The position numbers were made by a program, and so were the translations under genes. From Acidobacteriota bacterium (GTDB lineage: Bacteria > Acidobacteriota > Vicinamibacteria > Vicinamibacterales > 2-12-FULL-66-21): DNA of 64,000 nucleotides. The notes under the pieces are model-generated. The model was not told the DNA's origin. It was given only the letters and a program-made list of their open reading frames with translations, and searched no databases. Numbering within the stretch: the stretch's first letter is position 1; the number at the start of each line of letters is the position of its first letter. This document shows positions 6,278-10,478 of the stretch, piece after piece. The stretch is taken from positions 6,406 through 70,405 of the forward strand of contig JBKPTE010000004.1 of assembly GCA_046735335.1 (NCBI GenBank), read 5' to 3'.

Positions 6278-6718
6278 CTAGCCTGCGTTCTTGATCGTGA
6301 GAACGTCGACGACCTTCGCGGCCATCTCCTGGTCGACATTCAGAAGCACGCGCAATTCGTCGGCGAATCGCTGCTCGTTCGTCGTCAACCGCCCGTCCGA
6401 CAGCATCAGATCGACGGCAACCGCGAATGCTGTGGCTCGGAGCTCCGTCGGAACGGCGGTGGCGGCTGCGCTGACGACACCTTGGATGCCCTGCTGCTTG
6501 ATGCGCTCGGCGACGGTGGTGAAGATGCCGTGCCGCGCCTCGTAACTGGAGCCGCGGAAGAGCTTCATGGCGCCGACGACATGCTCGATCTGGTTTGCCT
6601 CATGTGGCGATACCGACCCGTCGGATCGGGCGCTGGCGAGGAGGAGGCACACGAACGCTTCAGGGGGCGAAAAAGCAATGGCGCCGGCCAGCTCGGCTGG
6701 TGCGGTCTGGTTGGTCAT
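6278..6718 (-). CDS. TerB-like (tellurite-resistance TerB fold) protein
   Basis: ORF 6278..6787. Start chosen at ATG 6718 behind GGAGG. The C-terminal pattern AFAVAVDLMLSDGRLTTNEQRFADEL is typical of TerB-type domains. Confidence 0.6.
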   Translation of the reverse strand: MTNQTAPAELAGAIAFSPPEAFVCLLLASARSDGSVSPHEANQIEHVVGAMKLFRGSSYEARHGIFTTVAERIKQQGIQGVVSAAATAVPTELRATAFAVAVDLMLSDGRLTTNEQRFADELRVLLNVDQEMAAKVVDVLTIKNAG

Positions 6719-7324
6719 GGCAACCTCCACTAGGAATGCGTTCAGCGACAGCGGTGACGCAGTGATCGTCGAAAATGCACGCGCCACGCCAGCGCCGCCT
6801 TAGCGAGTAACGCCGGAATGCGCGACCCTGTGTCCGCCGGCTGGGGCTCCGCCAGATTCACGACGAAAGACCATCTTTCAAACTGAAAGGCCTCGTGGCC
6901 TGGACGGCGCATCAATGCTGAACGGATCCAGCGGGCACCGGTCCTTCCCGGTGAAGGACTGCTGGGAACCCGTCAGGAGGCGGTGACTCGGCGGCGAAGT
7001 CCCGTGATTCCTGTCCCGGGAGTTCGGGTGCGGGAATTTTTCCCACACCGAACGGTGGGATACTGCGCGGAATCGGCGCAACCTATCGAGTGAGCTTCGA
7101 GCGTGTCCAGCGGAGCCGTTCGGGCCGCATCTTCGTAGACCCGACGGCGCAGCCGTGCCGCCACTTACGGCGTCTGGTTCGCTCGTTGCTTGACGACATT
7201 TCGAGCGCAGTCCCGCGTTTTGGGTTGCGAGCGACACGGCTTCGACGCTCACCCCGCACAGGTCCGCAGCGTTCCGCAGGCGCATCGCCAGCGGCGGTGT
7301 TGGACGGAAAGAGAGCGGAACATC

Positions 7325-8185
7325 ATGTCATTGCGAACGTATCAATGGCCCCGACTGGTCATCCTCAAACCCAGTGCCACCGTCTTCGAAGCGGCCCGGG
7401 CGCTCGACAACAACCAGGTCGGCGCCGTCGTGGTACAGCATCAAGGTCGAGCGATCGGGATCGTCACGGATCGCGATCTGACGGTGCGGGTCATCGGCCA
7501 GGGGCTCGATCCGCAGACCACGACGCTCGCCACGGTGATGTCCAACGAGGTAGTCACGTTACCGCTCGATGCGAGCCGGACCGAGGCGCTGCGCCTCATG
7601 CAGGATCGGCGCATCCGGCGGATTCCGCTCGTCGAAGACGGCGCGGTCGTCGGCGTCGTGACGCTGGACGACCTGCTGGCCGACGAAGCGGCGCCGCTGA
7701 CGGACTTCGCCGACGTCGTGCGAGCACAGATTGGCGAAGGCGGACCGATGGCGCCCACGAGACTCGAGATGCAAGCGGCGAAGCGGCGGGCCTCGCGGCT
7801 CGACGCCAGCTACCGGCGGTTGATGAACGAGTTCCGCACCGAGTCGGCGTTGTCATCGATTGAACAGGCCGACAGCGGGTTCCTCGTCATCCTCTCCGCC
7901 TTGGTGCGCCGCCTCACGGCAGACGAGGCGAAGGATTTGATCGCGCAGCTGCCGTTGCGAATCGGGGAACGGCTGCAATCGTTGCCTGCCGGTCCTGACA
8001 AGACGATCACCGAAGCGGCCATCGTGGCCGAGTTGGCCCGTCGTCTCGGCGTCACGCCTCCACGTGCGCGAGAGGTGCTCGACGCTGCGGTGCGGACGTT
8101 GGACGCGAACGTGAGCGCTGGGCAGATGCAGGACATCCGCCATCAGCTGCCGAAGGAGCTGAGAGCCGTATTCGCGCACGCGTAG
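7325..8185 (+). CDS. CBS-pair domain protein fused to a DUF2267-like C-terminal domain
   Basis: ORF 7190..8185, with the ATG at 7325. It has two CBS motifs (GIVTDRDL..., GVVTLDDLL) and then a helical domain ending in QLPKELRAVF, typical of DUF2267. Confidence 0.8.
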   Translation: MSLRTYQWPRLVILKPSATVFEAARALDNNQVGAVVVQHQGRAIGIVTDRDLTVRVIGQGLDPQTTTLATVMSNEVVTLPLDASRTEALRLMQDRRIRRIPLVEDGAVVGVVTLDDLLADEAAPLTDFADVVRAQIGEGGPMAPTRLEMQAAKRRASRLDASYRRLMNEFRTESALSSIEQADSGFLVILSALVRRLTADEAKDLIAQLPLRIGERLQSLPAGPDKTITEAAIVAELARRLGVTPPRAREVLDAAVRTLDANVSAGQMQDIRHQLPKELRAVFAHA

Positions 8186-8247
8186 GTCGCGAACACGCTG
8201 CATCTACTGACGCGTGCGATCGGGAAGCGTAGACCATCCCAAGGACG

Positions 8248-8664
8248 ATGACGATGGCAAGCAATGCGAAGCGCGTTCGTGCGAAACCTGGGAAGAAATT
8301 GGAGGTGGACGAGGCTCTGATTGCCCTGTTCATCGGGGCGATGAATGCGAACGGCCATGTCGCGCGCGAGGAACTTGCTCGCGCGCATCATCTGATCTGG
8401 TCCACGCGCCGGTTTCGCCGCGAGTCAGGCGAGACGGTGGGCCGTCTGATCGATCGCATGAAACGAGTGCTCGAAGGGCAGGACGCGCCGACAGTGATCG
8501 ACAGGGCCGCGAAGGCGGTGCCGGCGAGGTTGCGGCAGTCGGCCTTCGCCGTCGTCGCCGATCTGCTGAGGCCGCCGGTGCCCGTAAGTGATCGCGGCAC
8601 ATTAGGAGGTCTGACACAATTTCTGACACAATTCGGGTTTCCGGGCTCATCCACTCGCCCGTAA
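8248..8664 (+). CDS. TerB-like protein, apparently 3'-truncated and read through into foreign, AT-richer DNA
   Basis: It is similar to the 6278..6718 paralog up to ...SAFAVVADLL (about nt 8577). The tail RPPVPVSDRGTLGGLTQFLTQFGFPGSSTRP has no counterpart in the paralog. Confidence 0.5.
   Translation: MTMASNAKRVRAKPGKKLEVDEALIALFIGAMNANGHVAREELARAHHLIWSTRRFRRESGETVGRLIDRMKRVLEGQDAPTVIDRAAKAVPARLRQSAFAVVADLLRPPVPVSDRGTLGGLTQFLTQFGFPGSSTRP
8611..8634. repeat. tandem 12-bp duplication (ctgacacaattt / ctgacacaattc)
   Basis: Read directly from the sequence. It encodes LTQF-LTQF in the aberrant tail of the TerB-like ORF. Confidence 0.9.
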
Positions 8665-8684
8665 ACAATTGATTCGAAAGACAC

Positions 8685-8728
8685 GGAGAGATGTCCGAGT
8701 GGTTGAAGGAGCACGCTTGGAAAGCGCA
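8685..8728 (+). pseudogene. 5' half of a tRNA-Ser(GGA) gene (acceptor 5' strand, D-arm, anticodon stem-loop only)
   Basis: GGAGAGA-TG-TCC-GAGTGGTTGAA-GGA-G-CACGC-TTGGAAA-GCG matches the bacterial tRNA-Ser layout up to 3 nt past the anticodon loop. After that there is no variable arm, no T-arm (GGTTCGAATCC-like) and no TCTCTCC acceptor 3' strand. Confidence 0.6.
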
Positions 8729-8805
8729 GCTCTCGGAAGTCAGGCTGCTGCCCAGGCGAACTCCAAATCCAGATGGTTGTACGCCCCCGCAACCAAAATT
8801 TCGCG

Positions 8806-8838
8806 AAGGGCCACGGCTTTTGGTCGTGGCCCTTTTGC
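8806..8838 (+). terminator. rho-independent terminator hairpin
   Basis: GGGCCACG-gcttttggt-CGTGGCCC (8-bp GC stem) is followed by TTTTG. Confidence 0.6.
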
Positions 8839-8867
8839 CTTGTACGGCCGGCACGAGAAGGTGCGAC

Positions 8868-9317
8868 TTGGAAGACGAATCGCTCGTCGAGGCGTTCGAA
8901 CGGGCCGAGATCTCGGAGTATCAGTTCTCCCACGTCGAGCACGTGCGCGTCGCCTGGTGGTATCTGTCGCATCATCCCTTCGTCGAGGCCCGTGACCGCT
9001 TCAGCGAGGCGCTGCGGCGGTTCGCGGCGTCGAAGGGGAAGGCGGAGCGGTATCACGAGACAATCACGGTGGCGTACCTGCTGGTCATCGCGCACCGGAT
9101 CCAGCAGACACCCGCGTTGATCTGGTCCGTATTTGCGGACGCCCATGCGGACCTTCTCTCGCACACGCCGCCGATCCTCGCGCGCTACTATTCGGACGAA
9201 ACGCTGATATCGGAGCGGGCCACGAGGGAGTTCGTGCTGCCGGACCGCGCGGCGCTGCCGGTGTCCTCGGATGGTGGACCACCGGGGGCCTGCGGCACGG
9301 CTGTTGTGCCATGCTGA
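8868..9317 (+). CDS. hypothetical protein (about 149 aa)
   Basis: This is the in-frame part of ORF 8691..9317. The first plausible start is TTG 8868, behind GAGAAGG. The sequence is non-biased and protein-like (EISEYQFSHVEHVRVAWWYLSHHPF...YHETITVAYLLVIAH...), but I do not recognise a family. Confidence 0.5.
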   Translation: MEDESLVEAFERAEISEYQFSHVEHVRVAWWYLSHHPFVEARDRFSEALRRFAASKGKAERYHETITVAYLLVIAHRIQQTPALIWSVFADAHADLLSHTPPILARYYSDETLISERATREFVLPDRAALPVSSDGGPPGACGTAVVPC

Positions 9318-9349
9318 CTCGGTCTGGACCGAGTTGACGTGGGGCGTGC

Positions 9350-10478
9350 CTGCGACCGAAGGAGCGCACCGACACCGATGCCGCGAGTCGCAGCCGTCTC
9401 GAGTTCATGAGCGGTCTCGCCCGACGCGATGCGCGCCGCGGTTCCGACGGAGGCGTACTGCTGGCGAACGAGTTCGAGCGCCTTCGCCGACCAGGGCATC
9501 AATGCGCAATCGAGGCACACCCAATCGGCGTTGAAGTGCTCCCAGAATTCGGACCGATCCAGCGCGGTTCGAAAGGAAGCGACAGCTCGCGTCCGAGCGC
9601 TGCACTCTCAAAGAGACGTCCCCTTCGCGTGTAGCAGATGCCGTTTTCCGCCTCGAGGACTCCGAACCGCTGGCGAGGCGCCTCCTCGTTGCGGCAGACG
9701 ATGAGGATCGCGCGTGAGCCCATGTGCTTCTGCTCGACGACTACCTGGCTGACGCCGTTCGTGCGGCAGTACGAAAACGGCTCCGCCGGATGCTCCAGAA
9801 GCCCTTCGCGCTTGCTCGTCTCGCTCGGCGACATCGTCGGCGGCAGTTAGATCAGCCACTTTGGATTCACCGCAAAGCGGCTCATGACCTCGAGGGCCGC
9901 CGCGGCGTTCTCCTCTCGAATCGTGATGTTCCGGTGCAGTCGCGTTTCGACGAGACGCTTACCGCGCACGTCGTCGATGTCGAGCAGATCGTCCTTGGCC
10001 TGTTGCGCGCTCAGTGGCGCGACAGCAGGAGGTACAAGGAACAGGCGAGCCGGCTCCGCACACGTGGCCGGCGCCCGCATGGAGATCAGCTCCTTTTCGG
10101 GCCACCGCAAGGCCGTGAGGCGTCCGCCGAACACGCATCCGCTGTCGATGTTAATCGTGCGATTCAGCCACCCGGGTTCGGGGATTGGCGTGTGGCCATA
10201 CCCGACGGCGGCACCGCCACGATATTCGGATGCCCAGTTGTAGCGAACGGGCAGGCCGAATTCGTCCGTCTCGCGAGTCGTCTCGCCGAACAAGGCGAAG
10301 TCTCTGACCGTTGCGGAGCCCCCTGCATCTCCGCCTTCATGCCGGCATGCGCGACGACCAGCCGGCCGTCGTTGAAGACGTAGTGGCTGACGAGACGGTC
10401 GACGAAATCCCGGACGGCCGTGCGGAACTCCGGCGACTGGAGATCCAGTTCAACGAGCGTTCGAATCGCCCGAGTAAA
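9350..10478 (-). pseudogene. pnkp: internal fragment of polynucleotide kinase-phosphatase/ligase Pnkp (phosphatase C-half plus ligase N-half), truncated at both ends and disrupted
   Basis: Pieces in three frames carry Pnkp hallmarks: SPEFRTAVRDFVDRLVSHYVFNDGRLVVAHAGM; GYGHTPIPEPGWLNRTINIDSGCVFGG; VVVEQKHMGSRAILIV (ligase lysine motif); DWVCLDCALMPWSAKA. There is a frameshift at the C5 run 10319-10323, an in-frame TAA at 9847-9849 where WLI-Y-LPPTMSP is expected, and a second frameshift near 9575-9590. The kinase domain and the C-terminus are absent. Confidence 0.8.

Follow-up and report, generated by a model that had tools for sequence, protein, structure and literature searches.

A probable attachment-site relic carrying a lone tRNA-Ser(GGA) 5′ half in an Acidobacteriota contig

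The DNA described here is a 64-kb stretch of contig JBKPTE010000004.1 from an Acidobacteriota bacterium, termed the window, to which the analysis of the source genome was confined. Within it, nucleotides (nt) 8579-8781 comprise a conserved upstream arm, a lone 5′ half of a tRNA-Ser(GGA) gene and a short stretch of non-tRNA DNA, and probably represent the stranded remains of an attachment site used by a family of integrative elements with tyrosine integrases, a reading to which a probability of about 0.7 is assigned. The locus as a whole is a patch of relics from known processes, and the genomic scar is real but fairly ordinary. An earlier note on this DNA had proposed a scar with several breakpoints, and this is borne out by a truncated TerB-like gene, the lone tRNA half, a tRNA-fMet remnant and a decayed pnkp fragment; all of the features that it listed are present in the sequence, at slightly corrected coordinates.

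Across 8550-8850 the GC content falls from 0.73 to 0.49-0.59. The window junctions recur at 99.7-100% identity in contigs L003-L008 and L051, which come from separate samples; six of these metagenome contigs (L003-L008) were retrieved via the truncated TerB protein, while L051 was retrieved by a DNA scan (the L-numbered contigs, L003-L076, are the comparison sequences used throughout). The arrangement is not an assembly artefact, since the same junctions are found in eight independent assemblies from separate samples.

A recurrent break in tRNA-Ser(GGA) and its flanking arms

Segment C (8685-8726, + strand) consists of the first 42 nt of tRNA-Ser(GGA), comprising the acceptor 5′ strand, the D arm, the 5′ strand of the anticodon stem, the anticodon loop and 3 nt beyond the loop, where identity ends. 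All 42 nt are identical to the corresponding positions of the intact tRNA-Ser(GGA) genes in 41 metagenome contigs, and matches to this half in a BLAST search of phages and plasmids fall in annotated tRNA-Ser genes, stopping at the same point. A complete tRNA over 8685-8805 is detected neither by ARAGORN, which reports no tRNA gene in the whole 64 kb, nor by Rfam, which gives no tRNA or other family, whether the gathering score or E ≤ 10 is applied or the stretch is cut at the break. The acceptor 3′ strand, variable arm and T arm of a complete cloverleaf are missing at the locus, and no matching Ser 3′ half is found in the window. The earlier statement that no T arm or acceptor 3′ strand lies within 150 nt is correct for tRNA-Ser but overlooked a tRNA-fMet acceptor end at 8782-8795, described below. 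Nothing at the locus is expected to act as a tRNA.

A scan of metagenome contigs, mostly from soil and rhizosphere judging by their names, with the last 12 nt of upstream DNA joined to the first 18 nt of the tRNA (the B/C junction) retrieved 59 contigs. In 41 of these the match runs on into an intact 90-nt tRNA-Ser(GGA). In the other 18, among them L051 from the window population, identity to the tRNA ends at position 39-42, where the anticodon loop has its 3′ edge, a canonical sublocation for crossover at tRNA genes; this loss is seen in all 18 half contigs, with an uninterrupted tRNA run of 39-42 nt in 14 and a run shortened by an earlier point change or indel in the remaining four. The DNA past the break is diverse among the 18. 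Identical upstream DNA precedes either an intact tRNA (L052) or two differing post-loop sequences (L040 and L068), and the variable side therefore begins at the anticodon loop.

About 105 nt upstream of the tRNA are conserved in most of the 59 contigs that retain enough upstream DNA, while farther upstream the contigs are unrelated to one another. The conserved set comprises the motif GTAAGTGATCG at the left, followed by either one or two repeats of 12 nt and a promoter-like TTGCCG-N17-TAAACT. The window tRNA half and the ~105 nt that precede it (segment B, 8579-8684, + strand) form one such module, with the left motif at 8584-8594 and the sequence TCTGACACAATT twice in tandem at 8610-8621 and 8622-8633. 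The 12-bp tandem duplication reported earlier is thus present, at 8610-8633 rather than 8611-8634, but it is not damage: it is a conserved repeat pair found across related contigs, with the window repeats identical to those in L031, L047, L062 and L070. By comparison with the family consensus TTGCCG-N17-TAAACT, we infer that segment B holds a degenerate tRNA promoter, with a −35 hexamer at 8639-8644 and a −10 hexamer at 8662-8667; over the final 50 nt of the arm, the window copy departs from the consensus at 8 positions, and both hexamers are mutated. An upstream gene ending in ‘..RK*’ at GTAAGTGA was considered for this region and rejected, as the frame yields short arginine-rich open reading frames (ORFs). 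Scans of viral contigs matched neither junction (B/C or C/D) nor the pair of 12-nt repeats, and in a phage and plasmid BLAST of 8579-8800 the tRNA half was the sole matching part.

Past the half junctions a recurring order is observed, consisting of a CAACGACTTCC box ~55 nt beyond the loop, a CCGTAA(A/G)T motif and tandem 11-12-nt repeats. These repeats, with the core CAC(A/G)(A/G)T, and the CCGTAA(A/G)T motif are found both in segment B and, in most half-junction contigs, ~120-190 nt past the loop. Judged from this sequence organization, the half-junction layout is that of a putative phage-type attachment site (attP), in which a core is flanked on either side by arm-type repeats, and the 12-nt repeats, which also occur in the opposite arm, are probably integrase arm sites. 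Repeats of this type occur in the window P arm and, in related contigs, in the P′ arm as well; the putative P′ arm of the window ends before that point.

The arrangement of a complete element is displayed by contig L036. A lone 5′ half, preceded by a different promoter-like sequence without segment B, is followed by a P′-type arm, 8.2 kb of DNA and then segment B with an intact tRNA-Ser(GGA). The 8.2-kb cargo includes a tyrosine integrase (PF00589, E=1.6e-26), so that L036 has what the window lacks, namely an intact cognate tRNA that lies downstream, is oriented alike and is separated from the lone half by an integrase. It follows that the element carries the conserved arm and the 5′ half, and the module is best described, at the level of sequence, as the predicted P arm and core of an integrative element that replaces the 5′ half of the tRNA. 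Such elements would recombine in the anticodon loop of tRNA-Ser(GGA), with an attP that, contrary to most tRNA-targeting elements, carries a promoter and the tRNA 5′ half. Integration would leave the old 5′ half as a dead fragment at the left junction, while at the right junction a working gene would be rebuilt from the element 5′ half and the host 3′ half, and repeated integrations could stack up. A second 5′ half lies upstream in the same orientation in L061 and L054, which fits tandem accretion. The earlier proposal that the lone half arose by site-specific integration into a tRNA gene followed by deletion is supported.

In some of the sampled contigs, two further recombinases likewise target tRNA-Ser(GGA). 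A conventional tyrosine integrase, at various stages of decay, is located directly 3′ of the intact tRNA in L055, L074, L048, L038 and L069 (+105 to +1403 from the tRNA start), and a large serine recombinase gene overlaps the tRNA gene at its 3′ end in L061 and L035 (+61 onward). In the half-junction contig L059 an apparent DDE (rve/IS481-like) transposase, recognized by reading the translation by eye, follows the anticodon loop and occupies ~+45 to +1156 from the tRNA start on the opposite strand. One subfamily of elements carries, just upstream of the arm, a conserved protein of ~400 amino acids (aa) without a Pfam family and with a charged, coiled-coil-like C-terminal part (L064, at −1366..−167 relative to the tRNA, and L029, L036, L045, L053, L065, L076 and L033). 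Among the sampled organisms, tRNA-Ser(GGA) seems to serve as a busy hot spot for integration.

Junctions with the TerB-like and tRNA-fMet genes

The module abuts a truncated TerB-like gene on its left (ORF 8248-8664, + strand), in which only the part from 8248 to ~8568-8578 is homologous to TerB; the last 29-32 codons are read-through of foreign DNA up to a chance stop. Similarity to the paralog at 6278-6787 (− strand) stops at aa 107 (~nt 8568), and nucleotide homology to intact orthologs ends at 8578 (L009 and L010) or 8567-8568 (L011-L013), close to the limit of ~8577 claimed previously. Intact orthologs are 146-152 aa long, and ~40 further conserved C-terminal residues are absent from the window copy, which scores 16.8 bits against a Pfam TerB cutoff of 24.4 and covers profile positions 2-55 only. 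The left junction was located within 8569-8578, where TerB (GGCCGACGG...AAGATCGACGG) and the arm have short similarities.

A hemerythrin / TerB / (CBS-DUF2267) / TerB cluster is common to the window, L009 (86-93% nt identity), L010 and L011-L013. In these five relatives the second TerB gene is intact, the genes downstream of it vary, and no tRNA is found there; L009, the closest sampled relative with an intact TerB, lacks both the truncation and everything to the right of it. The CBS-DUF2267 gene (7453-8242) separates the two TerB paralogs in the window and in L010, while a comparison of L009 1374-2114 with window 6718-8242 reveals that most of it is missing in L009. Searched against genome contigs, the CBS-DUF2267 protein had as its sole match a 53%-identical, non-syntenic protein from a Bryobacteraceae metagenome-assembled genome, which is useless for synteny.

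On the right, segment D (8727-8781, + strand) is the non-tRNA DNA that follows the crossover point, at a break position common to 17 other contigs. It may represent the proximal ~55 nt of the P′ arm of an element, truncated where the CAACGACTTCC box would lie. A degenerate tRNA-Met body was also considered for segment D and rejected, since the similarity was not above that of shuffled sequences; homology to the sampled P′ arms was not significant either, and the putative P′-arm assignment is retained on the basis of position.

Segment D is followed by CGCCCCCGCAACCA (8782-8795, + strand). Homology to L015 and L016 (82.6% nt identity) starts at 8782, within the 3′ end of their intact tRNA-Met(CAT), which displays an initiator-type acceptor end; 8782-8795 therefore corresponds to the 3′ terminus, the last 14 nt, of a tRNA-fMet gene. 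The earlier note had concluded that a tRNA gene was lost at this locus. By synteny, the tRNA gene lost is tRNA-fMet; the Ser half, in contrast, gives no ground for postulating a native tRNA-Ser, because L009-L013 have no tRNA at this place and the DNA upstream of the half is the element-borne arm of the 59 contigs. The L054-type arm ACGCCTTCCCGCAAC and the window sequence ACGCC-CCCGCAAC lie at the same offset from the tRNA, at the P′ arm box, which suggests that the right junction was formed by a deletion via short homology with the tRNA-fMet 3′ end.

Alternatively, this junction could be the right-end attachment junction of a second, conventional island at the tRNA-fMet 3′ end, with segments B, C and D lying at its right end. 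The 14 nt of terminal tRNA identity followed by native downstream DNA, in which the hairpin and gene described below are syntenic with L015 and L016, form the usual signature of a displaced 3′ fragment of tRNA-gene DNA (tDNA) (PMC4383910). Neither an intact partner tRNA-fMet nor an integrase is found to the left within the window, however, and the left 8.5 kb display chromosomal synteny common to relatives, while ACGCC..CCCGCAAC, shared at the P′ arm box offset, offers a simpler route by microhomology. A second island is thus unlikely, although it fares somewhat better than the other alternatives discussed below.

The hairpin, the 149-aa gene and the pnkp fragment

Beyond the tRNA-fMet remnant, a minimum free energy fold reveals a hairpin, GGGCCACG-N9-CGTGGCCC, with a T-run (8808-8839, + strand). 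An 8-bp GC stem at 8808-8832 is followed by TTTT, the T-run extending to 8839, and the sequence has the features of a predicted intrinsic terminator; a simple terminator scan did not list 8808-8832 on the + strand. The terminator had previously been called an orphan. A hairpin with a T-run is indeed present, but it is no orphan, since in L015 and L016 it lies 3′ of tRNA-fMet. It accompanies the downstream gene in every context examined, including those with a gene for a Crp-like regulator (L018-20) or for a catalase (L017) as its neighbour on the upstream side; kept across such differing neighbours, the hairpin therefore travels with the gene. In four unrelated contexts, the hairpin together with TTTTG(C/T)TTTGTAC is found ~30-60 nt upstream of homologs of this gene, with an invariant stem and a variable loop (window 8808-8839, L015 ~495-530, L017 5941-5985 and L018 4264-4305). 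It looks like a leader or operator element of the gene family, beyond a terminator of the neighbouring gene. As predicted from these comparisons, the window hairpin would have been the lost tRNA-fMet gene's terminator and would also serve the downstream gene as a conserved leader element.

That gene (8868-9317, + strand) encodes an intact conserved hypothetical protein of 149 aa. It had been described as a small orphan gene, a description that does not hold, as 96 homologs were found; its conserved core (aa 1-127) is present in full, followed by a tail that varies among family members. The protein has no Pfam family, and the genes that flank it in L014-L016 display no synteny with the window.

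The pnkp pseudogene fragment (9359-10463, − strand) comprises the C-terminal part of the phosphatase domain and the N-terminal part of the ligase domain, and matches the solved Pnkp phosphatase and ligase domains. It had been reported as doubly truncated, and its decay is evident: only the middle of pnkp is matched, the Pfam PNKP_ligase profile is covered at positions 1-186 of 377, and instead of three domains in a single frame the fragment is spread across three frames, interrupted by a stop (9847-9849) and by frameshifts (near 10320 and at 9582-9610). It is equivalent to L021 9917-11027, i.e. ~aa 277-647 of ~870, with a piecewise protein identity of ~72-84% to the L021 pnkp, which adjoins hen1 in a Pnkp/Hen1 operon. 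In contrast to this RNA repair operon, the window fragment carries a stop and frameshifts, and no kinase domain or hen1 is found beside it.

Within the population, L007 1-2153 is identical to window 7999-9903 up to 9282, ~12% diverged over 9502-9901 and unrelated past 9903; over 9502-9901 its frame is open (a 185-aa ORF), with no stop or frameshift. The pnkp remnant is therefore polymorphic and mosaic within the population. The nearest hen1-pnkp locus (L021 7995-11633, on a 5.35-Mb contig) itself consists of several separate ORFs, with transposase and recombinase genes on its flanks; decay or mobility of pnkp may be common in this group, or else the split reflects frameshift errors of that assembly. 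A functional link between the tRNA half and pnkp through tRNA repair was considered and found no support, as pnkp is decaying and the neighbours differ between contigs; the closeness of the two appears to be a coincidence.

Alternative readings and relation to known systems

The attachment-site reading accounts for the window as follows. The junction would consist of a P arm with two 12-nt repeats and a degenerate promoter, the 42-nt 5′ half and ~55 nt of P′ arm. One deletion would have joined this relic to codon ~108 of the TerB-like gene and another would have fused the P′ arm with the 3′-terminal 14 nt of tRNA-fMet, each at a short sequence similarity, while the fMet hairpin and the 149-aa gene survived beside an independently decaying pnkp fragment. 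We infer both the microhomology-mediated nature of these deletions and the sequence in which events took place. On balance, the locus has had one TerB paralog truncated and has lost one copy of tRNA-fMet.

Several observations weigh against this reading. The window contains no integrase, integrase fragment, ~400-aa element protein or intact tRNA, and the element itself is not demonstrable there. A single fully bounded element with an integrase, that of L036, was recovered, and most half-junction contigs have no integrase in the DNA at hand. Segment D displays no significant similarity to the sampled P′ arms, its assignment being founded on the break position and on one short box at the same offset, and the roles of the arm sites and of the promoter are putative. 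The left junction lies ~10-25 nt from the edge of detectable arm conservation, a coincidence that is unexplained if the deletion was random.

A plain scar of illegitimate recombination, in which a native tRNA-Ser(GGA) lost its 3′ half by random deletion without an integrase, would find a parallel in the non-specific decay evident nearby (the TerB truncation, the pnkp frameshifts and the differing truncation points in L007), and both outer junctions are microhomology-like. It is nevertheless improbable: 17 other contigs, whose downstream DNA is unrelated, break within the same interval of 3-4 nt, the upstream 105 nt are an element-type arm and not a locus-specific flank, and the relatives with an intact TerB have no tRNA there. 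A further proposal, to which we give equally little credence, is that the arm, promoter and tRNA-Ser 5′ half constitute a portable module disseminated widely in soil bacteria by elements of a 5′-replacing family, of which the window copy has been co-opted for transcription through the hairpin into the 149-aa gene. If this were true, serial accretion would litter genomes with transcribed, promoter-equipped tRNA 5′ halves, and the window module would be a regulatory unit, not junk.

Least probable of all is a functional chimeric small RNA gene, in which promoter, tRNA-Ser 5′ half, spacer and hairpin terminator would yield a tRNA-half-like RNA or a read-through leader driving the 149-aa gene: the fold of 8685-8845 is more stable than that of shuffled sequences (z = −3.4), a promoter-like arm and an intact hairpin with T-run bound the unit, which is invariant in all population contigs, and the gene, just ~30 nt from the hairpin, may need upstream transcription, but the unit has no cloverleaf and no Rfam family, its −35 and −10 hexamers are mutated from the family consensus, L009 lacks the arrangement, the invariance reflects near-clonality (0 differences over 1.3 kb on both sides) and such halves are a by-product in 17 other contigs.

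As an attachment-site relic, the locus may be compared with the islands catalogued by Islander, of which 159 of 3919 (~4%), a documented minority, leave a 5′ tDNA fragment (PMC4383910); the unusual polarity ascribed to a lone 5′ half is in agreement with these figures. The features in common are a tyrosine integrase, an anticodon-loop crossover, a displaced fragment and a regenerated tRNA at the ends, and tandem accretion, L036 displaying the full signature. The window differs in being a junction relic only, without integrase or partner tRNA, and its module, having both P and P′ arms, resembles an attP or inter-element junction and not a primary host/element one. A limited literature search found no description of a family that targets tRNA-Ser(GGA) by 5′ replacement. 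Conventional prophages and islands that leave 3′ fragments, e.g. those with an integrase 3′ of tRNA-Ser in L055 and L074, share the target gene and the recombinase superfamily, but they replace the 3′ part of the tRNA, need no attP promoter and leave 3′ fragments, so that their polarity is the reverse of that of the window Ser remnant and agrees with that of the 14-nt fMet remnant. In actinobacteriophages with tRNA-dependent lysogeny (PMC10865867), integration into a tRNA gene likewise leaves a broken host copy. There, the tRNA is not rebuilt at the junction and a whole phage tRNA compensates, whereas an L036-type element would rebuild the gene by donating a promoter and a 5′ half.

For the genome itself the scar is of little consequence, amounting to a dead tRNA fragment, the loss of one tRNA-fMet copy, the truncation of a TerB paralog and a defunct gene for RNA repair. 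For annotation pipelines, a fragment of this kind is no ground for inferring a lost tRNA-Ser gene; lone tRNA 5′ halves with conserved upstream DNA may instead be read as a signature of elements that donate a promoter and a 5′ half. The most useful by-product of the analysis is the recognition of a widespread family of elements that, as predicted from their sequences, replace the 5′ half of tRNA-Ser(GGA).

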